The translations under genes and the position numbers were made by a program. A stretch of DNA of 14,993 nt from a virus (lineage: Duplodnaviria > Heunggongvirae > Uroviricota > Caudoviricetes). Below the pieces are notes generated by a model that worked only from the letters and a program-made list of their open reading frames with translations, did not search any database and had not been told where the DNA came from. The stretch lies in the IMG/VR virus record IMGVR_UViG_2563366958_000011. One strand, given 5' to 3'. Positions 1,369 through 14,993 of this stretch are shown here, in pieces; positions within the stretch are counted from its first letter, which is position 1, and each line of letters starts with the position of its first letter.

Positions 1369-1444
1369 GCCGATATAGCTCAGTTGGTAGAGCAGCGCAT
1401 TCGTAATGCGAAGGTCGTAGGTTCGACTCCTATTATCGGCACCA
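1369..1444 (+). tRNA. thrW: tRNA-Thr (anticodon CGU), thrW-type; integration target of the downstream island
   Basis: 76 nt GCCGATATAGCTCAGTTGGTAGAGCAGCGCATTCGTAATGCG...GGTTCGACTCCTATTATCGGCACCA. Acceptor stem GCCGATA/TATCGGC, D-loop AGCTCAGTTGGTAGAGC, anticodon CGT in the loop, T-arm GGTTCGACTCC, encoded CCA. Confidence 0.95.
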
Positions 1445-2824: not shown

Positions 2825-2890
2825 AACAACTGGACAAGTATACAGAGGTTTACTAAAGTATAAGGGAGTAGATTGATAAAAACTCACAGA

Positions 2891-3220
2891 GGATTGCTAT
2901 TTAACAGTTAGCCATGGAGAAGGGCAATCGCTCTTTTAACAACGAAGATGGAATCTTCTACGCAGCTGAAAAGCTGGATGCTCTTTAACAGCCTTTGGTG
3001 CTTTTCTGATGCAGGAAAGAATAGGGATACATGCACCTTTACAATGCATGTAATGATTCATCCATGAGGCTGCGGAGCGCTGACAAAGCGCAATTGCTCT
3101 TTAACATTGATGTGGGCGGGATGGTTCGTCCCGCAGTGACCGATAGATTTCTATCGGGAAACATACAATGATTCAAATATGAATCTACGGCGCTGACAAA
3201 GCGCAATTGCTCTCTTGCCT
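2891..3220. repeat. intergenic repeat/palindrome array: five GCTnTTTAACA-like motifs, an imperfect ~111-bp tandem duplication and several perfect palindromes
   Basis: Motifs near 2891-2907, 2922-2943, 2977-2993, 3088-3109 and 3199-3220. Exact 24-mer gcgctgacaaagcgcaattgctct at 3077-3100 and 3188-3211. Palindromes gcggga-N7-tcccgc at 3115-3133, cgataga-ttt-ctatcg region at 3140-3157, gattca-aata-tgaatc at 3170-3185. Confidence 0.6.
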
Positions 3221-3475
3221 GCCCACCATGCCCTGAAAAAGGGCGTTCTTTAAAACTACTGGATGTCACGCCTAATAGCGTGATCCTGCCGAAATGCAGG
3301 GTAGCTCTACCCTTGTGGAGCAAACAAACCAAAACAATCTGACTATCTTTTATAAAAGACCGCAATATGTTTTTCATATTGTGGTCTTTGGCGTATTCGA
3401 CATTTGACGCAAATAAAACTCTCGCCATTCGTTGCAGGAGGGGGTTATTGCGTCATTAGTACAGGATATTAATAA

Positions 3476-3679
3476 ATGGCTAATTACAATTCATTAATTC
3501 GTCTCTCTGAAGTTCAAAGGCGAACTGGTTATAGCAAAGCATGGATTTATCGTCTTATTAGTCAGGGGAGGTTCCCTAAACAGGTAAAAATTGGAAGTCG
3601 GGCAATTGCTTTTGTTGAGTCTGAAATAGATGAATGGATTGAGAAGTGTATATTAGAATCTAGAGACGAGGTGGCCTGA
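3476..3679 (+). CDS. alpA: AlpA-family phage/island transcriptional regulator (excisionase-like HTH), 67 aa
   Basis: Sequence LIRLSEVQRRTGYSKAWIYRLISQGRFPKQVKIGSRAIAFVESEIDEWI matches the AlpA/prophage regulatory protein pattern (HTH then a conserved W/E tail). AGGA about 10 nt upstream of the ATG. Confidence 0.85.
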   Translation: MANYNSLIRLSEVQRRTGYSKAWIYRLISQGRFPKQVKIGSRAIAFVESEIDEWIEKCILESRDEVA

Positions 3680-4110
3680 TGGAAAAGAAAAACCGCCCAT
3701 TACAGGCGGCTAATTCAGATATTCGTGTATCTGATGTTACGCCCCTTACAAAATCCCTTCAAGCACCAAAGCGCACACCGAAAAAGCATCGTGCCAGAGT
3801 CTATATGCTGCGTACTGGTATAGAGGGATGGACAGAAAATGACATTCTTCGCTACTGCCGTCTGTCTTCTGGTCGTAACTATGCAACAGAGTTAGAACGC
3901 CAGCTTGGAATCACTCTGGAGCGTATCGACGAAAAGAATCCTGATGGTATCGGAACACACCTTCGCTACCGTTTCTCCTGCCGTGGTGATGTTCTGAAAG
4001 TGATCACTCATGTTAACCATCTTGCGAACATAAATGATCACAACGGACTTTCTCAGCAGGAAATTGCCGACATTCTGAAACTCTACCCGGACGCGTTTAA
4101 CGCCGCCTAA
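3679..4110 (+). CDS. hypothetical protein, 143 aa, basic N-terminus; translationally coupled to alpA (TGATG overlap)
   Basis: ORF whose start overlaps the alpA stop by 1 nt. No family recognised from sequence alone. Confidence 0.65.
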   Translation: MEKKNRPLQAANSDIRVSDVTPLTKSLQAPKRTPKKHRARVYMLRTGIEGWTENDILRYCRLSSGRNYATELERQLGITLERIDEKNPDGIGTHLRYRFSCRGDVLKVITHVNHLANINDHNGLSQQEIADILKLYPDAFNAA

Positions 4111-4122
4111 CGGAGACTGAAA

Positions 4123-4956
4123 ATGAACATCGAAAAAAGCAGATTAATTTCTGAGGCCGCCCCTCATCTGAACGCCTCTCTGGGCACAATTAACGGTAAT
4201 GAATTTGCCGCAATTGTCCCGGTTATTCCTGGTCATATCGGTGGGCGTGAAACCAATATTGTTAGCGCAAAAGCGTTACACAAAGCGTTGGGCGTGGGAA
4301 AAGACTTCTCTACATGGATCACTGATCGCATCTCTGAATATGACTTCACCATTGGGCACGATTACTCAGTCCATAAAACAATTTCCCCAAATTTGGGGAA
4401 AAGCCCGAATGGCGCGGCTTACAGCAAGATAAAGCACTCTGGCAGACCCGGCAAAGACTATCTGTTAAGTGTCGGAATGGCGAAAGAACTGGCAATGATC
4501 GAACGCAATGATCAGGGTCGCGCTATCCGCCGTTATTTCATCCAGTGCGAGGAAGAATTACAGCGTAGCGTTCCTGAAATCGCCGCCCGCTATCGTCGCC
4601 AGCTAAAAGCCCGTCTCAGTGCCGCAAACAACTTTAAGCCAATGTGCGATGCGCTGAATATGGCCCGTGCCGAGATGGGTAAAACGACGCAGCAACACCA
4701 CTACACAAACGAGAGCAATATGATTTCTCGTATCGTTCTTGGTGGGCTAACTGCTAAGCAGTGGGCGCGGATAAATGGCTATTCTGGCGAACCTCGCGAC
4801 CATATGAACGCAGAACAGCTTGAGCACCTCTCATATCTCGAAAGCACCAATATCACGTTAATTGATATGGGCATGGAATATGAGCAGCGCAAAGGAGAAC
4901 TCACCCGCCTGTCGCAACGCTGGCTCGCCAAGCGTCTGGAGGCGGTCCATGTTTAA
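4123..4956 (+). CDS. phage antirepressor-like protein (AntA/AntB-type N-terminal region), 277 aa
   Basis: GGAG SD 7 nt upstream. Segment SAKALHKALGVGKDFSTWITDRISEYDFTIGHDY and following LSVGMAKELAMIERNDQGRAIRRYFIQCEEEL resemble the AntA/AntB antirepressor N-terminal domain as I remember it. C-terminal 130 aa unassigned. Confidence 0.6.
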   Translation: MNIEKSRLISEAAPHLNASLGTINGNEFAAIVPVIPGHIGGRETNIVSAKALHKALGVGKDFSTWITDRISEYDFTIGHDYSVHKTISPNLGKSPNGAAYSKIKHSGRPGKDYLLSVGMAKELAMIERNDQGRAIRRYFIQCEEELQRSVPEIAARYRRQLKARLSAANNFKPMCDALNMARAEMGKTTQQHHYTNESNMISRIVLGGLTAKQWARINGYSGEPRDHMNAEQLEHLSYLESTNITLIDMGMEYEQRKGELTRLSQRWLAKRLEAVHV

Positions 4957-5131
4957 GCCGACAGGAACACCACAACCTCAAAAACGCTACAAAGATGCCC
5001 ACGGAGCACTCGTTACTGTCGAAAGCGTGTCTCACAACCGAGTGACGTTTTATCGCGACGGGTATCAATCGCCATGCGTACAACCGCTGGCGCGCTTCAT
5101 GAAGGAGTTCGCGGAGGTTAACAAATGCTAA
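4949..5131 (+). CDS. small hypothetical protein, 60 aa
   Basis: ATG at 4949 with GGAGG at 4938-4942. Start overlaps the upstream stop (ATGTTTAA). Its stop overlaps the next start. Confidence 0.5.
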   Translation: MFKPTGTPQPQKRYKDAHGALVTVESVSHNRVTFYRDGYQSPCVQPLARFMKEFAEVNKC

Positions 5132-5598
5132 CCGTCCAGAAGAAGATATTTTCACTGGCTGGTATGTCACCAAAATCCAGCAATATGACAGCAAAGTCTG
5201 GCATTAATACAGCAGATACAAGCAAAGTTTATCATTTTCTGGTGGTAGGAGCGGATGCCTTAACTATGTCAGAAATTACGGTCGATGGTGTTAGCGTTGA
5301 GAAGGTCAGCGGCTGCGCCAGAGAATTTCTGGTCGTAGATGGCTTTCTCTGCTCGCGTAGTGACTCCACAAAAACCTTCGTCCATACGCGCGACGTTAAC
5401 GAAATGAGCGCGATGTATTGTGCATCTGGTGCTTCCAATACTGAGTTTTCGGAGTCCATAAAAAAGAGCTTGCCGTTATGCGGCAACACGGTTTATGGTT
5501 ATAAGGCACCTCATAAAACGGGTGCCGGGATTGGCGTCCTGAAAATTCTGAAGGCGACATATGACGCGCCGGGTGATGCTGCCAACTTACTGATTTAG
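5125..5598 (+). CDS. hypothetical protein; last 8 codons and stop are supplied by the IS1 left end, so the native 3' end is interrupted
   Basis: ATG 5125 with GGAGG at 5113-5117, coupled to the upstream gene (ATGCTAA). Frame enters IS1 at 5572 and terminates at the IS1 TAG (5596-5598). Native C-terminus unknown. Confidence 0.5.
5563..5571. repeat. IS1 target-site duplication, left copy (GACGCGCCG)
   Basis: The identical 9-mer recurs immediately after the IS1 right end at 6340-6348. Confidence 0.9.
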
Positions 5599-5626
5599 TG
5601 TATGATGGTGTTTTTGAGGTGCTCCA

Positions 5627-5902
5627 GTGGCTTCTGTTTCTATCAGCTGTCCCTCCTGTTCAGCTACTGACGGGGTGGTGCGTAACGGCAAAAGCACCGC
5701 CGGACATCAGCGCTATCTCTGCTCTCACTGCCGTAAAACATGGCAACTGCAGTTCACTTACACCGCTTCTCAACCCGGTACGCACCAGAAAATCATTGAT
5801 ATGGCCATGAATGGCGTTGGATGCCGGGCAACAGCCCGCATTATGGGCGTTGGCCTCAACACGATTTTACGTCACTTAAAAAACTCAGGCCGCAGTCGGT
5901 AA
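5627..5902 (+). CDS. insA: IS1 InsA (zinc-finger transposition regulator), 91 aa
   Basis: [22 protein letters not shown]...CSHC zinc-finger N-terminus; canonical InsA. Confidence 0.95.
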
Positions 5903-6324
5903 CCTCGCGCATACAGCCGGGCAGTGACGTCATCGTCTGCGCGGAAATGGACGAACAGTGGGGCTATGTCGGGGCTAAATCGCGCCAGCGCTGGCTGTTT
6001 TACGCGTATGACAGGCTCCGGAAGACGGTTGTTGCGCACGTATTCGGTGAACGCACTATGGCGACGCTGGGGCGTCTTATGAGCCTGCTGTCACCCTTTG
6101 ACGTGGTGATATGGATGACGGATGGCTGGCCGCTGTATGAATCCCGCCTGAAGGGAAAGCTGCACGTAATCAGCAAGCGATATACGCAGCGAATTGAGCG
6201 GCATAACCTGAATCTGAGGCAGCACCTGGCACGGCTGGGACGGAAGTCGCTGTCGTTCTCAAAATCGGTGGAGCTGCATGACAAAGTCATCGGGCATTAT
6301 CTGAACATAAAACACTATCAATAA
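5821..6324 (+). CDS. insB: IS1 InsB frame (transposase made as an InsAB' fusion by -1 frameshift at the A6C site)
   Basis: ORF in the -1 frame relative to insA, overlapping its 3' end. AAAAAAC slippery motif at 5878-5884. Coordinates are from the first in-frame ATG of the ORF track. Confidence 0.9.
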
Positions 6325-6339
6325 GTTGGAGTCATTACC

Positions 6340-6348
6340 GACGCGCCG
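6340..6348. repeat. IS1 target-site duplication, right copy (GACGCGCCG)
   Basis: Exact 9-bp match to 5563-5571, directly abutting the IS1 right terminus. Confidence 0.9.
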
Positions 6349-6361
6349 AGCGTCTTTTTTT
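6340..6361 (+). terminator. putative intrinsic terminator (GACGC-GCCGA-GCGTC hairpin plus T7), into whose stem IS1 inserted
   Basis: 5-bp stem, 5-nt loop, then TTTTTTT at 6355-6361. The TSD equals the 5' arm and loop of the hairpin. The stem is short, so confidence is modest. Confidence 0.4.
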
Positions 6362-6369
6362 ATGTCGTA

Positions 6370-6408
6370 GGTCTGACTCACCCATTTTTTGGGCGTTGGT
6401 GTATAATC
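6370..6408 (+). promoter_or_regulatory. putative promoter of the small-gene/primase operon (consensus -10 TATAAT at 6402-6407)
   Basis: Perfect TATAAT hexamer about 160 nt upstream of the first SD-preceded gene. No convincing -35 identified. Confidence 0.35.
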
Positions 6409-6563
6409 CAGCGCCTTTGTCAATCAATGGTGGCTCAGGCGGGGGCTTCTTCGGAAGCGCCGGTATCCTTCAGAGCCGGTTACGCCAACCCTGTCTGGGC
6501 TACCACCAGCGAAATTGGCGTTTCCGGTGGTAGCGTAACCTGCTATCTGAAGGAGGCTGCCAC
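6409..6563 (+). promoter_or_regulatory. structured 5' leader (possible regulatory RNA) upstream of the first small gene
   Basis: Hairpin gcttc-UUCG-gaagc at 6445-6458 and a 9-bp stem gctaccacc/ggtggtagc at 6499-6507 and 6526-6534 with an 18-nt loop. Ends at the AGGAGG SD (6551-6556). Confidence 0.3.
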
Positions 6564-6758
6564 ATGCTGGCTACTACCCCTACCCAAAAACCGCAATTTA
6601 TCTGGATTATCGCCGCAGTTCGCCGCGATTGCCCGACAATTACCGCCAAAATTCATCATATTGCTGCCGAGTCTGAACGCGATGCTCGCCGTTCTCTGGT
6701 GCGCGATCACGTCTGCTTTTTTGCTGGTCGTATCCGCATGGAGGTGGCACATGATTAA
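6564..6758 (+). CDS. small hypothetical protein, 64 aa (first gene of coupled operon)
   Basis: AGGAGG 7 nt upstream of ATG 6564. Stop overlaps the next start (ATGATTAA). Confidence 0.65.
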   Translation: MLATTPTQKPQFIWIIAAVRRDCPTITAKIHHIAAESERDARRSLVRDHVCFFAGRIRMEVAHD

Positions 6759-6969
6759 AACCTACGATGTGCATATGGATCCCCTCGAACGCACAAGCCA
6801 GATCATCACACTGACAGAAGTGATTAACGACATTCTGGTGAGCAACTCTCCCTCACGAGACGAAAGGCTGAAGGCGTTACTCGCGATATTGGATCTCGCC
6901 GTTCGTGACGTTCATTTCCTGCTGGAAGGTGGCGAAATGCCAGGAAAAACGGGGGCAACCAATGAATAA
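6751..6969 (+). CDS. small hypothetical protein, 72 aa
   Basis: GGAGG at 6740-6744, 6 nt before ATG 6751. This is the C-terminal part of track ORF 6427-6969; the short start is preferred because of the SD and the start/stop overlap. Confidence 0.65.
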   Translation: MIKTYDVHMDPLERTSQIITLTEVINDILVSNSPSRDERLKALLAILDLAVRDVHFLLEGGEMPGKTGATNE

Positions 6970-8581: not shown

Positions 8582-8945
8582 AAATGCAGAAATGGCGCTT
8601 AGCTCCGCAATCGGAGAGCAGGTGGCAAAGATTGCTGGTGCTGTGTGGATTCATAACCTTCATTCTACTGGTGAAGAGAAAATGGCAATTCAGACGCCAG
8701 AGGGACGCACCATTACTACATCTCTGAAGCCGTCAGATGTTTGTGATCTGATTTGCGCATTCATGTACCCAGCAATGAGGACTGTCCACGGCGATAAGTG
8801 GAAACTTGCGACAACCGCTGAATTTGATATGTGGCTAAACAATGATGGCATGCTGACTGATTACGGAATAACCAAGTGGCAGATGCTGGTTAGCCATATC
8901 GCAAACGCTATAGACCACGTGGGGTACGGTGATGCGAAACATTGA
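8574..8945 (+). CDS. hypothetical protein, 123 aa
   Basis: ATGCGTGA overlap with the upstream gene. 3' end overlaps the primase start by 14-17 nt. Confidence 0.65.
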   Translation: MRENAEMALSSAIGEQVAKIAGAVWIHNLHSTGEEKMAIQTPEGRTITTSLKPSDVCDLICAFMYPAMRTVHGDKWKLATTAEFDMWLNNDGMLTDYGITKWQMLVSHIANAIDHVGYGDAKH

Positions 8946-11688
8946 TCTTATCCGTCAGGTTATCAGTGCGTCTGAAAACAACTGGCCTCATGTGCTGGGC
9001 TGCCTGAACATAAATGTCCCTGACTCTCCGCGCCGTCATGCTCCCTGCCCTGCATGTGGGGGCAAAGATCGATTCCGGTTCGATGACAACGGGCGCGGTA
9101 GCTTCATCTGTAATCAGTGCGGCGCTGGTGATGGGCTGGATTTAATTAAACGCGTAAATAACTGCGACACAACAGAGGCGGCGCTTCTTGCCGCTGATGT
9201 TCTGGGTATTGATTACCGGACAACGGAAACACCAGAAGCCACCAGCCAGAAACGGGAACAACTGGAAACCGAGCGCCAGCGACGCGAACAGGAGCGCCTG
9301 AAAAGGGCAGAGAAGGACGAACAACAAAGACGGGATACGTTTTCCCGTCAGTTTGATGACATGCGCAGAAAGGCTGTAAACGGCAAATCTGATTATCTGG
9401 TTGCGAAAGGGGTAGGTGATTTTACATTCCCCGTGTTGCCCGATGGATCTCTGTTGCTGGCGCTGGTGGATAAATCCGGCGCAGTCACAGCAGCACAGAC
9501 TATTACATCACATGGTGAAAAAAGACTCCTGACAGGTTCAGCAAAGCGGGGGGCATATCACGCCATAAACGCGCCAGAAACAACACAGAGCATCTTAATC
9601 GCAGAAGGGCTGGCAACGGCATTATCTGCCCATTTAATTCGTCCAGAGGCGCTGACAGTGGCGGCGATTGATGCCGGGAACCTGTTATATGTCCCCCAGG
9701 TACTGCGGGATAAATTTCCTTCAGCACAAATCATCATTGCTGCGGATAACGACCACAGCGAAGGAAGACAAAACACGGGGAGAATAGCAGCAGAAAAAGC
9801 AGCTTTATCTGTTTCTGGATGGGTGGCATTACCCCCGACAGATCACAAAGCAGACTGGAATGATTACCACCAAAAACACGGCATTAAATGCGCCACAGAA
9901 GCGTTCAATAAGTCAATGTACCAACCACAGGGTAATGGCGTGAAACATGAGCCACAGACCATTGAGGGAAGCGATTTTAAGGTTATGGATACCGACCCAC
10001 TGAAACCAAGAATAGAAAGCCGCGAGGATGGTATTTATTGGGTATCTCCGAGAGCTGACAGCCAGAGTGGAGAAATCATCAATAACGAAAGCTGGTTATG
10101 TTCTCCGTTAAGCGTTATCGGTACTGGCAGAGACGATAAAGACCAGTATCTCATTCTTCGCTGGCTGTCGTTTGGTTCTGAAACGCCGACAACCGCTGCC
10201 ATTCCACTGGCTGATATTGGTGAACGTGAAGGATGGCGCACACTTAAAGCTGGTGGGGTAAATGTCACGACCAAAAGCAGCCTCAGAGCAATACTGGCAG
10301 ACTGGCTACAACGCAGTGGCTCTCGTGAATTGTGGCGTGTTGCTCATGCCACTGGCTGGCAATGCGGAGCGTACATCATGCCTGATGGGGAAATCATCGG
10401 AACACCTGAAAATCCTGTGCTGTTCAGCGGGAGAAGCTCAGCCGCAGCCGGATATACCGTCTCAGGGAGCGCGAAAAGCTGGCGTGATAACGTGGCGCGT
10501 CTGGCCTTTGGTAACTATTCAATGATGACCGGGATCGGCGCAGCACTGGCAGCGCCATTGATTGGGCTGGTGGGCGCTGACGGGTTCGGCATTCATTTCT
10601 ATGAGCAGTCGAGCGCAGGTAAGACCACCACGGCAAACGTGGCGAGCAGCTTATACGGCAACCCTGATTTACTGCGGCTGACGTGGTACGGAACCGCGCT
10701 GGGGCTGGCAAATGAGGCCGCCGCCCACAATGACGGACTAATGCCGCTTGATGAAGTTGGTCAGGGCGCTGATCCTGTCAGCGTTTCACAGTCTGCCTAT
10801 GCGTTATTTAACGGTGTAGGGAAACTGCAAGGCGCTAAAGATGGTGGAAACCGGGATCTAAAACGCTGGCGTACAGTGGCAATCAGCACCGGAGAAATGG
10901 ATTTAGAAACATTTATCGCTACTTCCGGGCGAAAAACCAAAGCCGGGCAACTGGTGCGACTGCTGAATATTCCGTTGAGTAAAGCAGTACGCTTTCACGA
11001 TTACCAGAACGGAAAACAGCACGCAGACGCACTGAAAGACGCTTACCAGCATCACCACGGCGCGTCCGGGCGTGAGTGGATTAAATGGCTGGCAGACCAC
11101 CAGCAACAGGCTATTAAAACCGTTCGTGACTGCGAAAGCAGATGGAGAAGCCTGATCCCATCCGATTATGGTGAGCAGGTTCACCGTGTAGCCGCGCGAT
11201 TTGCCATTCTGGAGGCCGCATTGTTGTTAGGCGAGGTTGTAACAGGCTGGGATGCTCAGACATGCCGTGATGCGATACAGCACAGCTATAACGCATGGTT
11301 GCGCGAGTTCGGCACAGGTAACAAAGAGCATCAGCAGATTATTGAACAAACGGAGGCATTTCTTAATGCCTATGGGCTTAGCCGTTTTGCACCATTTCCA
11401 TACAGCCCGGCAGATTTGCCCATCAAAGATTTAGCCGGATACCGTCAGCGTGGAGAACATGACGAAAGCCCAATGATTTTCTACACATTCCCGGCCACAT
11501 TTGAAAAGGAGATCGCATGTGGTTTCAACGCAAAACAGTTTGCTGAAGTGTTGAAAAAAGCCGGGATGCTAACCCCACCAAACAGCGGTCGTGGATACCA
11601 AAGAAAATCACCACGTATTCAGGGACGACAAATAAACGTTTATGTACTCAATTACCAGCCAGGAGATTATAACTCATCTGAAGAATGA
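8929..11688 (+). CDS. DNA primase-helicase (P4 alpha-like): zinc-ribbon + TOPRIM primase + Walker-type NTPase, 919 aa
   Basis: N-terminal CPACGG...RFRFDD...CNQCG zinc ribbon. TOPRIM-like motifs ILIAEG and IIAADNDHSEG. C-terminal Walker A-like QSSAGKTT and Walker B-like MPLDEVGQ. Track start is GTG 8929; ATG 8932 is the likelier start. Confidence 0.9.
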   Translation: MMRNIDLIRQVISASENNWPHVLGCLNINVPDSPRRHAPCPACGGKDRFRFDDNGRGSFICNQCGAGDGLDLIKRVNNCDTTEAALLAADVLGIDYRTTETPEATSQKREQLETERQRREQERLKRAEKDEQQRRDTFSRQFDDMRRKAVNGKSDYLVAKGVGDFTFPVLPDGSLLLALVDKSGAVTAAQTITSHGEKRLLTGSAKRGAYHAINAPETTQSILIAEGLATALSAHLIRPEALTVAAIDAGNLLYVPQVLRDKFPSAQIIIAADNDHSEGRQNTGRIAAEKAALSVSGWVALPPTDHKADWNDYHQKHGIKCATEAFNKSMYQPQGNGVKHEPQTIEGSDFKVMDTDPLKPRIESREDGIYWVSPRADSQSGEIINNESWLCSPLSVIGTGRDDKDQYLILRWLSFGSETPTTAAIPLADIGEREGWRTLKAGGVNVTTKSSLRAILADWLQRSGSRELWRVAHATGWQCGAYIMPDGEIIGTPENPVLFSGRSSAAAGYTVSGSAKSWRDNVARLAFGNYSMMTGIGAALAAPLIGLVGADGFGIHFYEQSSAGKTTTANVASSLYGNPDLLRLTWYGTALGLANEAAAHNDGLMPLDEVGQGADPVSVSQSAYALFNGVGKLQGAKDGGNRDLKRWRTVAISTGEMDLETFIATSGRKTKAGQLVRLLNIPLSKAVRFHDYQNGKQHADALKDAYQHHHGASGREWIKWLADHQQQAIKTVRDCESRWRSLIPSDYGEQVHRVAARFAILEAALLLGEVVTGWDAQTCRDAIQHSYNAWLREFGTGNKEHQQIIEQTEAFLNAYGLSRFAPFPYSPADLPIKDLAGYRQRGEHDESPMIFYTFPATFEKEIACGFNAKQFAEVLKKAGMLTPPNSGRGYQRKSPRIQGRQINVYVLNYQPGDYNSSEE

Positions 11689-12451: not shown

Positions 12452-12808
12452 ATGGAACTAAAATTTATTGATAACCCTGTGCGATTACAGGCCTTTCTTA
12501 ACGAGCCAGGCAATACCGAAAATATTGTTGAGCCGGGGCACACGTACTACATCAAGCCTGATGCGGTATATCTCGGCATCTACGAAGGATTAGTGCTGGC
12601 TGGCGTTCATGAAGTGCGTAACTTCTGGCATAGCGTTGTTGAATGCCATGCGGTGTACGACCCCGGATTCCGTGGTGAATATGCACTGCAAGGACATCGA
12701 TTATTCTGCAAATGGCTTCTCGAAAACTCACCATTCCTTAACAGCATTACCATGGTTCCTGACACCACGAAATACGGACGGGCAATTATCCGTTTGCTTG
12801 GCGGGTGA
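12452..12808 (+). CDS. hypothetical protein, 3' end truncated by IS1 copy 2 (stop codon lies inside the IS1 left end)
   Basis: ORF begins 17 nt after the RHH-like gene. TGA at 12806-12808 belongs to the IS1 terminus GGTGATG, so the native C-terminus is missing. Confidence 0.55.
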   Translation: MELKFIDNPVRLQAFLNEPGNTENIVEPGHTYYIKPDAVYLGIYEGLVLAGVHEVRNFWHSVVECHAVYDPGFRGEYALQGHRLFCKWLLENSPFLNSITMVPDTTKYGRAIIRLLGG

Positions 12809-12858
12809 TGCTGCCAACTTACTGATTTAGTGTATGATGGTGTTTTTGAGGTGCTCCA

Positions 12859-13134
12859 GTGGCTTCTGTTTCTATCAGCTGTCCCTCCTGTTCAGCTACT
12901 GACGGGGTGGTGCGTAACGGCAAAAGCACCGCCGGACATCAGCGCTATCTCTGCTCTCACTGCCGTAAAACATGGCAACTGCAGTTCACTTACACCGCTT
13001 CTCAACCCGGTACGCACCAGAAAATCATTGATATGGCCATGAATGGCGTTGGATGCCGGGCAACAGCCCGCATTATGGGCGTTGGCCTCAACACGATTTT
13101 ACGTCACTTAAAAAACTCAGGCCGCAGTCGGTAA
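12859..13134 (+). CDS. insA: IS1 InsA, copy 2
   Basis: Translation identical to copy 1 InsA. Confidence 0.95.
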
Positions 13135-13556
13135 CCTCGCGCATACAGCCGGGCAGTGACGTCATCGTCTGCGCGGAAATGGACGAACAGTGGGGCTATG
13201 TCGGGGCTAAATCGCGCCAGCGCTGGCTGTTTTACGCGTATGACAGGCTCCGGAAGACGGTTGTTGCGCACGTATTCGGTGAACGCACTATGGCGACGCT
13301 GGGGCGTCTTATGAGCCTGCTGTCACCCTTTGACGTGGTGATATGGATGACGGATGGCTGGCCGCTGTATGAATCCCGCCTGAAGGGAAAGCTGCACGTA
13401 ATCAGCAAGCGATATACGCAGCGAATTGAGCGGCATAACCTGAATCTGAGGCAGCACCTGGCACGGCTGGGACGGAAGTCGCTGTCGTTCTCAAAATCGG
13501 TGGAGCTGCATGACAAAGTCATCGGGCATTATCTGAACATAAAACACTATCAATAA
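13053..13556 (+). CDS. insB: IS1 InsB frame, copy 2
   Basis: Translation identical to copy 1 InsB. Confidence 0.9.
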
Positions 13557-13566
13557 GTTGGAGTCA

Positions 13567-14316
13567 TTACCCAAATGCCGCAGCCCCCTCTGGATCCGCC
13601 TTTAACATTTGCGCGTATTGATTGTAATTCTGCATTGCGGCTGTTGGTGCATATGCTGACGTTAACGCATTTGCTCGGCTAATATCCTGCCCTCTCGCCT
13701 GAAGTGCTTCTCCGGCTTGATTGCTGCGGATCGTCTCTGCCAACTTGCCACGCTCAATATCCCGACCTTCCATTCGATCTTTGATATCGAAGTACTTCTC
13801 ATGACCGAGAGAAAACAGTGCCATACTACCAGCAAGCCGCTGGAATCCCTGTGGATCATTAACATGCATTTCGGCAACAGACTCAGGAGAAATTCCCAAA
13901 CGACGCATTTCATCTTCGTTATCTGCTATGAATTTTCCAAATGCCCCAGTTCCGAGCGAAGATGCGATTTGAGCACTAGTCGCAAGATGACCAATAGAAT
14001 TTCTCTGGTCGTCATCAATAAAGCCCATCCCTTTCTGAACGCTTTCAAATTCTTCTGGATACTCAGAAATAAGACTGCGCATTTTGTTTCTGTCTCCAGA
14101 CTCAAAAGCCCCGGCATATGCTTTCTGAAACTCTGCTTTACGCTGTTGTTGACGTGCCTGCTGATTAATCTCAGCAACGCCTCTTAGCCCCTGTAGCGCC
14201 ATTAAACCTACGTTTGGCTGCTGCTGATACTGCACAGGCTGAGGAACGGAAGAACGAGGAGCATTATCATTTTGCGGTGCCATGCTAGGCAGCCCGCCAA
14301 GTTGCCATGTCGCCAT
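13567..14316 (-). CDS. hypothetical Gln/Pro-rich protein, 249 aa; stop codon supplied by the IS1 right terminus, so probably C-terminally truncated
   Basis: Minus-strand ORF whose TAA (13567-13569) lies inside the IS1 end sequence. Start overlaps the upstream gene by 1 nt (TAATG), indicating an operon. Confidence 0.6.
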   Translation of the reverse strand: MATWQLGGLPSMAPQNDNAPRSSVPQPVQYQQQPNVGLMALQGLRGVAEINQQARQQQRKAEFQKAYAGAFESGDRNKMRSLISEYPEEFESVQKGMGFIDDDQRNSIGHLATSAQIASSLGTGAFGKFIADNEDEMRRLGISPESVAEMHVNDPQGFQRLAGSMALFSLGHEKYFDIKDRMEGRDIERGKLAETIRSNQAGEALQARGQDISRANALTSAYAPTAAMQNYNQYAQMLKADPEGAAAFG

Positions 14317-14993
14317 TAGAATCCAAGCCCCCCAACAAGACCAATAAGCCCACCACCAATAGCCCCGGCGACATTACCTATACCCGGAACAACGGAACCA
14401 AGTTGCGCACCCGCTAAAGCGCCTGATGCCGCCCCACCAATACCACGCGCAAGACTGGATGGCTGCTGCGCCTGACCTGCACGAATAGCGCCAAGCCCCT
14501 GCAAGAGTTGTCCGGTATTATTGGCGTAGTTTTGCCCTGCTGTTGCCTGCCCTGATGCCGCATTCATCCCGACATTTAGCAGGTTTCCATAATTTTGCAT
14601 TTGCCCACTGAGCCAATTGTTATAAAGCATGGGCGCAATGGAAGATAACTGGTTACTGGTAGCTGTTGAGCCAAGCCCCCCGGTAGCTTCTGCTGAGACA
14701 AGGTTCTGATAACGGGCCTGATCTGCCTGTGTTTTATATAAACCAGAACCAAAGAAATCATTCGCGGCTTTATTCTGCCCTTCCAGAGTCATCAGTCCTT
14801 GTAGTTGTTGTAAAGCAGGCAATCCGACTTCTGCATACGGCTTGAGATTATTCATCACCGTATTCCACTGCTCGCGCTGCAAATCAATTGCCTGCTGCTG
14901 GGCCTTCGCCTGAGCTTTAGAGGCACCACCATCACCGCCTTTTTCGTATACGGCACGATTGAGATGTTTATAAGCTATATGGGTAATTAACAT
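14316..14993 (-). CDS. hypothetical Gln/Asn/Gly-rich protein with a C-terminal glycine-zipper hydrophobic segment; N-terminus may lie beyond the window edge
   Basis: Minus-strand ORF reaching the window end. C-terminus GIGGAASGALAGAQLGSVVPGIGNVAGAIGGGLIGLVGGLGF looks like a membrane-inserting glycine zipper. Possibly a phage ejection or structural protein, or a bacteriocin-like protein; family not recognised. Confidence 0.55.
   Translation of the reverse strand: MLITHIAYKHLNRAVYEKGGDGGASKAQAKAQQQAIDLQREQWNTVMNNLKPYAEVGLPALQQLQGLMTLEGQNKAANDFFGSGLYKTQADQARYQNLVSAEATGGLGSTATSNQLSSIAPMLYNNWLSGQMQNYGNLLNVGMNAASGQATAGQNYANNTGQLLQGLGAIRAGQAQQPSSLARGIGGAASGALAGAQLGSVVPGIGNVAGAIGGGLIGLVGGLGF

Follow-up and report, generated by a model that had tools for sequence, protein, structure and literature searches.

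A cargo-like gene cluster next to the integrase as probable conserved regulatory machinery of an EcCIMP1-family phage-inducible chromosomal island

What do the four consecutive genes do that follow alpA, close to the integrase gene and up to an IS1 element, in the 14,993-nucleotide stretch of DNA analysed here (the window)? A first-pass annotation read them as a variable int-proximal cargo module, either an uncharacterised defence system or a helper-derepression or interference function, whose last gene had been truncated by IS1. On our analysis, the window very likely holds a phage-inducible chromosomal island (PICI) of the EcCIMP1 family, inserted at thrW, in which the cluster makes up the proximal half of an AlpA-controlled operon, the 'Bro zone'. 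A common region of E. coli islands that resembles cargo would then be conserved regulatory apparatus of a satellite family already described.

The layout of the window points to this identity. The tRNA-Thr gene (thrW, 1369-1444) contains an att core, TCCTATTATC at 1428-1437, and is immediately followed by int (1610-2824), which sits at one end of the island and is directed inward. The coupled gene chain begins with alpA (3476-3679, plus strand; PF05930, E 7e-20), which encodes a master activator/excisionase-type regulator. The Bro zone (3679-6969) lies between alpA and the replication genes, with the primase at 8929-11688 and late genes from 12274 on. This order of zones (int, alpA, Bro, Replication, Late), all in a single orientation, is that of Gram-negative PICIs, for which a four-zone plan including a Bro zone has been described (PMC10111431). 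The closest described element is EcCIMP1 of E. coli MP1 (Pick, Stadel and Raivio, ISME J 2025, PMC11773190), with which the present island has in common the insertion site (tRNA-Thr beside proA), an identical reported att core and a gene set of int, alpA, antirepressor, Ash, DUF927 primase, DUF2824 and DNA-transfer genes. Induction, excision and transfer of EcCIMP1 were found by experiment to depend on the helper phage Kapi1, and alpA at the equivalent position is required for excision and transfer (PMC11773190). Unlike EcCIMP1, the present copy carries an IS1 in its leader ORF, together with a second IS1 and inverted late genes. The description of EcCIMP1 does not include the antisense-RNA switch and the terminase gene fragment that are presented below.

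All four ORFs of the cluster lie on the plus strand. They are orf143 (3679-4110, 143 aa), a gene for an AntA/AntB-family two-domain 'antirepressor' of the Bro-network type (4123-4956, 277 aa; AntA below), a small DUF4222 gene (4949-5131, 60 aa; PF13973, E 6e-25) and a fourth ORF that, as read into IS1, spans 5125-5598 (157 aa). A GGAG/GAGG-type Shine-Dalgarno sequence is found 8-13 nt upstream of each, and the start/stop overlaps seen on first reading are confirmed: TGATG between alpA and orf143, ATGTTTAA between AntA and DUF4222, and ATGCTAA between DUF4222 and the fourth ORF. These junctions, at which start and stop codons overlap or nearly adjoin, support a single coupled unit beginning at alpA. 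The first-pass annotation had also found only the 277-aa protein recognisable, which holds with respect to orf143, for which no curated family was found, but not for the 60-aa protein (DUF4222) or for the fourth ORF, whose intact form is named 'ash family protein' (355 aa) in RefSeq.

The fourth ORF is the least gene-like member of the chain. Its 5' part (5125-5571, plus strand) is cut by IS1 and resumes at 6349-6969, and PF10554 matches the continuation past IS1 (E 2e-20). No stop codon interrupts the frame in any of the 11 E. coli alleles or in seven distant loci. Substitutions are spread evenly across codon positions, with the third position not favoured and with even counts region by region, and in AshCore we counted 7 synonymous against 46 non-synonymous codon changes. 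Rather than an ordinary protein gene, the fourth ORF is very likely the analogue of P4 eta: its frame is kept open without the product being conserved as protein. Downstream lies an icd-like (P4 kil-like) small gene at 6564-6758 (plus strand), to which annotations of relatives give the name Icd-like. Its frame differs from that of the leader ORF here and in the closest relatives, including locus L008, whereas the two frames agree in 6 of 7 loci that do not belong to the EcCIMP1 type. A further small gene, orf72 (6751-6969, plus strand), has an ATG that overlaps the icd stop codon, and differs from its L008 equivalent at four sites, all of them third-position changes; current annotation treats it as part of the 355-aa 'ash' ORF. 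Under the single RefSeq name 'ash family protein' thus fall a leader frame, two regulatory RNA elements, a stretch that crosses icd in another frame, and a separate small gene.

The two RNA elements make up a putative antisense switch. A C4/CI-type antisense immunity RNA at 6423-6510 (plus strand) matches RF01695 over its full length, scoring 79.9 bits where the gathering score is 45, and coincides with the Pfam Phage_ASH match. Upstream, an isrK/seqA-like element carrying the a1/b1 targets of C4 RNA lies at 5506-5571 (plus strand), with its last 12 nt at 6349-6360 past IS1; at the corresponding place in relatives, both isrK (RF01394) and c4-a1b1 (RF03163) are detected, and locus L001 shows a terminator-like hairpin (GACGC-GCCGA-GCGTC) followed by a T-run. 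IsrK has been reported as a structural homologue of P4 seqA (PMC4825925). The target of the C4 hairpin-2 loop, TCTGAAGGA at 6546-6554 (plus strand), is an exact complement of the loop and overlaps the icd ribosome site, making icd the first gene under C4 control. Both isrK and C4 were present in all related Enterobacterales loci tested, and one Orbaceae locus had C4 alone. Across eight loci with seven loop sequences, the RNA loops and both targets co-vary. Among the 11 E. coli alleles there are at least five C4 specificities, which suggests that the islands are mutually heteroimmune. As for promoters of isrK and C4, a consensus scan found no more sites than in shuffled sequence; a TATAAT at approximately 6392-6397 was noticed by eye.

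By analogy with P4 and P1, C4 RNA in the resting island would pair with both targets and halt expression from icd to the primase. Once a helper phage induces alpA, transcription from upstream, together with coupled translation of the leader, would override the C4 block, a step carried over from P4. In P4, eta, CI, seqA and Kil are nested and translation prevents termination (PMC10111431). The P4 unit (eta/kil with CI RNA, seqA and seqC; PMC10111431) is placed like that of the island, between alpA and primase, and the island repeats its Bro-network gene, its long ORF with CI and seqA homologues, its nested killer/icd-type gene and its coupling to an alpA homologue. In contrast to P4, the island has orf143, antA and DUF4222 inserted between alpA and the eta-like ORF, has in this lineage an eta-like frame shifted relative to icd, and lacks sid, delta and psu. 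The immI region of P1/P7 (c4 RNA, a1b1 and a2b2 targets, icd and ant) likewise has the Rfam families C4 and c4-a1b1 in common with the island. Both show two-site pairing, with the icd ribosome site covered by the second target, and both include a gene of the antirepressor family in the unit. In the island, however, replication genes are under control, and the ant-family gene precedes the RNA switch and is therefore not the gene that the switch represses.

The leader ORF also contains, in antisense, a piece of a phage packaging gene. At 5273-5383 on the minus strand we found a fragment of a P22-type small-terminase gene, identical at 105 of 111 positions (95%) to a variant phage terS. With positions 4-110 of the P22 genome, in which the annotated pac occupies 4-25, it shares 87.8% identity. 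Within it, a 22-mer at the pac position, GAAGGTTTTTGTGGAGTCACTA (5358-5379, minus strand), agrees with the mapped pac at 16 of 22 positions and with the equivalent position of a natural variant terS allele at all 22, the mapped pac being that of P22. The homology to terS starts only 4-9 nt ahead of the 22-mer, which is almost invariant among 11 island alleles. The fragment occurs in 448 of 5426 genomes, which corresponds to almost all islands of the EcCIMP1 type, and every island in which it was found has P22-like ejection genes too. Based on these observations, we tentatively propose that the 111-bp fragment with its 22-mer is a packaging signal of the island, in which case efficient packaging would be carried out only by P22-like phages with a matching TerS allele.

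Such a signal would offer a testable answer to a question left open for EcCIMP1, whose packaging mechanism is stated as unknown (PMC11773190), and it would predict which phages are the real helpers. Kapi1 moves EcCIMP1 at low frequency (PMC11773190); its TerS is unrelated to the fragment and is of the Sf6 type, which under a packaging role would explain the very low transfer. The alleles of the fragment are mosaics of phage terS alleles, and the islands may in that case keep their packaging site matched to helpers via recombination with helper terS genes. A comparable situation is known from the Vibrio satellite PLE, which has no terminase of its own and carries a short copy of the helper packaging site (Boyd and Seed, bioRxiv 10.1101/2024.04.22.590561). 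Unlike the PLE copy, the candidate signal of the island is a 111-bp piece of a helper-type terS lying antisense within the leader ORF, and the sole experimentally known helper of EcCIMP1 has a different TerS.

Quite possibly, the fragment is instead a neutral recombination scar left by P22-like phages, with no part in packaging. It lies in a hypervariable segment that in four other variants lacks homology to phage packaging genes, the mosaic alleles fit repeated gene conversion, and the published helper transfers the island, albeit at low frequency, without a matching TerS type. A neutral scar sits less easily with the retention of the fragment in nearly every such island, with its restriction to islands that have P22-like ejection genes, with a homology boundary placed just before the pac position and with a 22-mer that matches a natural terS allele in full and is nearly constant. 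The four other segment variants, each from a different island type, also speak against a general 'packaging-site cassette': two have no phage match at all, and the sole match of the other two is a gene from vB_KppS-Ant, a capsid-forming satellite. A role of the fragment as an antisense RNA against helper terS mRNA was rated unlikely, because the island would itself be starved of terminase and because Kapi1 contains no sequence matching or complementary to the fragment or its 22-mer.

Of the proteins encoded between alpA and the leader ORF, two are predicted regulators. Homologues of orf143 form 611 clusters across Enterobacterales, and its product, which is basic and conserved, has a predicted winged-helix-like core. 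A resemblance of its C-terminus to the head-binding domain of the P22 tailspike was dropped as non-significant (Pfam E 0.094, PDB E 0.45); a direct pairwise comparison with the tailspike gave E 0.014 with 28% identity over 39 residues, which is insufficient. Residues 47-129 of AntA match PF08346 (E 3e-21), and the protein matches phrog_5817, 'anti-repressor Ant'. An AF2 model of AntA is of low confidence (pLDDT 63.6), and a Foldseek search with it returned only a weak likeness to the DNA-binding protein DdrC (E 1.5e-4, TM 0.2-0.3). Sequence searches against solved structures gave no match for orf143, AntA or DUF4222. DUF4222 is found in most related loci and has moved position in Acerihabitans. 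We predict orf143 (winged-helix-like) and AntA (Bro-network) to be conserved DNA-binding regulators. These two proteins and DUF4222 are conserved and would be induced by the helper.

One version of the helper-interference idea places the target of AntA, possibly together with orf143, in the helper, through derepression of a prophage as by P4 epsilon or repression as by the CapR protein of PLE. AntA-family N-terminal domains are frequent in phage antirepressor genes, Bro-network proteins of satellites can control helper genes (CapR, cited in PMC10111431), and antA would be co-transcribed with alpA upon helper induction. We nevertheless consider a helper-directed role unlikely, given that neither Kapi1 titres nor CI-lux expression are altered by EcCIMP1, that 'antirepressor' is the annotation name of a family and not a tested function, that the likeness to DdrC is weak, and that AntA is equally conserved in islands without any P22-like parts. 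A helper-directed AntA would be compatible with the best explanation of the locus as a whole.

Conservation speaks most directly to the question of cargo. At least 80% of the cluster is held by 481 of 5426 complete E. coli genomes, and relatives free of IS1 reach 100% identity over it. The gene order orf143-AntA-(DUF4222)-Ash-Icd-primase is repeated in Shimwellia, Enterobacter and Acerihabitans, and partly in Orbaceae, and the module also turns up at a different insertion site, beside integrases unrelated to the present one and in the company of different primases and late genes. The cluster is thus constant while its flanking modules vary, so it does not occupy a variable hotspot; the truly variable slot is the one between int and alpA, which is empty in the present stretch. 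In the published comparison of EcCIMP1 the antirepressor, Ash and primase genes are among the conserved genes (PMC11773190). The Bro zone is described as dynamic and domain-swapping, and 'core' is therefore valid for this lineage and not for all PICIs. The proteins that the first-pass annotation took for variable cargo are accordingly regulatory components that related satellites of several genera have in common, an outcome which that annotation had itself named as refuting its reading. No known defence model was matched in the cluster: scans with PADLOC, NCBIfam, Pfam and PHROGs assigned none of its proteins to a defence family, and PADLOC returned nothing beyond a partial match of AntA residues 167-266 to the candidate PDC-S22 (E 4e-11). 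Accessory cargo such as an anti-phage defence system, which that partial match and the increased superinfection immunity to Kapi1 conferred by EcCIMP1 as a whole element (gene not mapped) would favour, is largely refuted by this conservation and is very improbable in view of the gene order kept across genera beside differing integrases, primases and late genes, the otherwise empty PADLOC result, the standing of antirepressor and Ash among the most conserved genes and the location of the real variable slot.

The regulatory unit is interrupted in the present copy. IS1 (5572-6339, plus strand) is a simple insertion flanked by two copies of its duplicated 9-bp target, gacgcgccg, one at 5563-5571 and the other at 6340-6348. 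It had been thought to have removed the native end of the last gene; on the contrary, taking IS1 out restores the 1068-bp ORF of IS1-free relatives. The junction was found in none of the RefSeq complete E. coli genomes. Something is nonetheless probably disabled, as first suspected, because IS1 splits the alpA chain from the C4-icd-primase part and thereby probably cuts the replication genes off from alpA-driven expression. Both IS1 and its duplication are situated inside the terminator-like hairpin of isrK, and a second IS1 elsewhere has rearranged the late genes; together, these two insertions have probably left the present copy of the island crippled.

The locus belongs, as an IS1-damaged copy, to a published satellite family, that of EcCIMP1, a 19,963-bp phage-inducible chromosomal island (PICI) of E. 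coli MP1 that occupies a tRNA-Thr between proA and yagU with the att core TCCTATTATC (PMC11773190). The same core lies within the tRNA of the window (1428-1437), where proA (1-1254) and tRNA-Thr(CGT), thrW (1369-1444), are followed by an integrase gene (int, 1610-2824), alpA (3476-3679, a clear Phage_AlpA member), four ORFs, the last of them interrupted by a first IS1 (5572-6339), a run of small ORFs, a gene for a 919-aa TOPRIM/DUF927 primase (8929-11688), a second IS1 (12804-13571) and, beyond it on the opposite strand, P22-like ejection-protein genes (13572-14993). Gram-negative PICIs are organized into Integration, Bro, Replication and Late zones (PMC10111431). EcCIMP1 needs alpA for excision and transfer and is induced and transferred by the P22-like phage Kapi1, at a very low transfer frequency and by a packaging mechanism that the study leaves open; its antirepressor, Ash and primase genes show strong conservation across related islands (PMC11773190). 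The attL region of one island (L002 12224-12275) shares 96% identity with the P22 attP core (P22 21293-21344), so the thrW site is common to the island and P22-like phages.

The first-pass annotation correctly gave four ORFs with their Shine-Dalgarno sequences and overlaps (TGATG, ATGTTTAA and ATGCTAA): orf143 (143 aa, 3679-4110), AntA (277 aa, 4123-4956), a 60-aa protein (4949-5131) and a fourth ORF from 5125. Its description of all products but AntA as unrecognizable holds for orf143, for which profile scans of Pfam, PHROG and NCBIfam found no curated family, and not for the 60-aa protein, which is DUF4222, or the fourth ORF, which belongs to the ash family. Nor has IS1 removed the native end of the last gene, as had been supposed. 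The element is flanked by a 9-bp duplication (gacgcgccg), and its excision in silico restores the 1068-bp 'ash family protein' gene found intact in IS1-free genomes; the ORF is therefore simply interrupted, not truncated. The C-terminal residues of the fourth ORF and the post-IS1 ORF (6427 onward) match complementary halves of the same PHROG families, and the latter also matches Pfam Phage_ASH.

This fourth 'gene' is an RNA-based immunity region of a kind already known. At 6423-6510, coinciding exactly with the Phage_ASH match, Rfam identifies a C4 antisense RNA over its full length (79.9 bits). At seven related loci, isrK or c4-a1b1, upstream targets of C4, lies 25-62 nt upstream of it, and the start of icd, a kil-like small gene heading the replication genes, lies 51-54 nt downstream; one Orbaceae locus has C4 alone. 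The isrK-like element of the window is split by the first IS1 (5506-5571 and 6349-6360), which sits within its terminator-like hairpin (GACGC-GCCGA-GCGTC, then a T-run). Reading the locus sequences side by side, we found the C4 hairpin 2 loop to be complementary to two targets, one within isrK and the other covering the icd ribosome-binding sequence (loop ATCCTTCAGA with targets TCTGAAGG and TCTGAAGGA in the window; loop TCCTTGTAC with targets GTACGAGG and GTACAAGGA in the related locus L008), with loop and targets likewise co-varying in L007, L009, L011 and L012. A second pairing site in the C4 3′ bulge also co-varies, with ACGCCAA against TTGGCGT (twice) in the window and TTCTCAC against GTGAGAA (twice) in L009. 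The switch parts and their co-variation are directly observed. At least five loop/target specificities occur among 11 closely related E. coli alleles (window 5125-6620 compared with L004, L008, L077, L078 and L081-L086), which suggests that the combinations represent distinct immunity types.

The long frame spans the C4/isrK region uninterrupted at every locus examined, and is in frame with icd in six of seven loci outside the EcCIMP1 type. Between the window and L008, AshCore substitutions number 35, 27 and 30 at the three codon positions, with no third-position bias (7 synonymous and 46 non-synonymous codon changes), and per-region counts over the 11 alleles are also even. Because the frame is open everywhere and its substitutions lack this bias, we read it as a probable translated leader, whose sequence is constrained by the RNA elements within it, in the manner described for P4 eta. 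The ORF that RefSeq annotates as a 355-aa 'ash family protein' (window 5125-6969; 13726-14793 in the IS1-free L001) overlies isrK and C4, crosses icd out of frame and takes in a separate 72-aa gene (6751-6969). In P4, the Bro-network gene eta encloses the CI RNA and seqA, with Kil as a truncated Eta nested inside it; translation of full-length Eta, which prevents termination, occurs only from a late promoter upstream and is coupled to the alpA homologue; the Rfam models C4 and isrK also match several PICIs (PMC10111431). By analogy with P4 and P1, C4 RNA would stop icd translation and cause termination, leaving the replication genes silent, and transcription driven by AlpA, with translation coupled from alpA onward across the leader, would override this block, which would account for the tight start/stop coupling of the ORFs. 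IS1 insertions are polar, and the first IS1 would uncouple the two halves of the locus in this copy.

Within the leader ORF lies the sole feature of the locus for which we found no earlier description in the literature, a directly testable 111-bp piece of a P22-type small-terminase gene, terS (5273-5383, minus strand), that starts 4 bases before the P22 pac position (annotated at 4-25). P22 positions 4-110 align with the opposite strand of window 5273-5379 at 87.8% identity, and permissive gapped alignment does not lengthen the match. At the pac position, a 22-mer agrees with P22 itself at 16 of 22 bases; an exact search of IMG/VR placed the island 22-mer in three P22-like terS genes of one and the same sequence, which share 89.5% identity with gp3 and are followed by terL. 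Compared with this variant allele, the window is identical at 105 of 111 positions and at 22/22 over the 22-mer. The fragment could function as a pac signal matched to one TerS allele, a reading to which we assign somewhat less than an even chance; pac-site mimicry of a helper by a satellite is described for PLE and ICP1 (bioRxiv 10.1101/2024.04.22.590561). Function is favored by the presence of the segment in 448 of 5426 E. coli genomes and by its company: all seven examined loci with the fragment have the DUF927 primase and P22-like gp20-type ejection genes (six also gp14 and gp7), and six loci lacking it lack both. The 11 island alleles are, moreover, mosaics of different phage terS alleles with a nearly invariant 22-mer, and two island types compared in the terS frame show 7 synonymous codon changes and 6 non-synonymous ones, whereas in the leader frame the numbers are 2 and 11. 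The alternative is a recombination scar that persists because the leader around it must stay open. Kapi1 encodes an Sf6-type TerS (142 aa, L076 18704-19132), unrelated to P22 gp3 and without similarity to the fragment; what this phage shares with the window is limited to gp14-, gp7- and gp20-like genes and a 49% identical integrase.

The antirepressor-like 277-aa protein has an AntA domain (residues 47-129) and matches to PHROG antirepressor families. Its N-terminal domain is widespread among phage 'antirepressor' genes and its C-terminal domain occurs separately in some phages; the predicted structure is poor overall (pLDDT 63.6), yet the C-terminal helical domain is confident, and the model gives significant Foldseek matches only to DdrC, a DNA-binding protein, with low TM. 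AntA possibly acts on the helper; counting against this role, EcCIMP1 leaves Kapi1 titres and CI expression unchanged (PMC11773190).

The reading of the cluster as variable int-proximal cargo or a defence module is wrong, though the observation behind it was largely right. At least 80% of region 3400-5572 is present in 481 of 5426 complete E. coli genomes (megablast), and in E. coli the block from orf143 onward also occurs beside yicC, with an unrelated integrase and a different alpA, and paired with P4-family primases and different downstream genes. Beyond E. coli, a species-level AntA scan followed by tblastn of all window proteins recovered the order orf143-AntA-(DUF4222)-Ash-Icd-...-primase in an Escherichia species, Shimwellia, Enterobacter and Acerihabitans, on a contig labelled Chryseobacterium and, in a reduced version, in Orbaceae and Gilliamella. 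The cluster proteins are thus conserved in related satellites across genera beside differing integrases, primases and downstream genes, an outcome that the first-pass annotation had itself named as refuting its proposal. PADLOC matched none of them to a defence model beyond one partial hit, AntA residues 167-266 (window 4621-4920) to the candidate PDC-S22 (E 4e-11), which may partly reflect satellite regulatory genes, not a defence function.

The truly variable position, seen in close relatives (L004 7958-8695; L006 7751-8701; L007 10358-11077; L077 8343-9224), is the one-gene interval from int to alpA, occupied by genes for four unrelated proteins of 239-316 aa, none with Pfam or PADLOC matches, or for a DUF6387 protein. 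The Rfam int-alpA RNA motif (RF02996) directly follows int in the relatives L008 (8198-8265), L013 (7837-7902) and L014 (8365-8430); no copy reaches the gathering threshold in the window, whose slot (2825-3475) holds no gene. This interval carries a direct repeat of ~115 bp with the hairpin GCGCTGACAAAGCGC at 3077-3100 and 3190-3213.

The second IS1 with its inverted late genes is a second sign of decay of this copy. It lacks a target duplication and abuts P22-like gp20 and gp7 genes that run opposite to their counterparts in IS1-free relatives, and gp14/DUF2824 is cut short there at residue 118, likely through IS1-mediated rearrangement. Several island-bearing IMG/VR 'viral' contigs measure 43-76 kb and may be tandem island-prophage arrays. 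A Bro-zone gene is shared by the Enterobacter (L011) and 'Chryseobacterium' (L010) islands and 'phage' vB_KppS-Ant (L079, LR881103.1, 16.5 kb), an induced 'prophage' with the gene content of a capsid-forming satellite (int, regulator, primase, capsid, portal and terminase).
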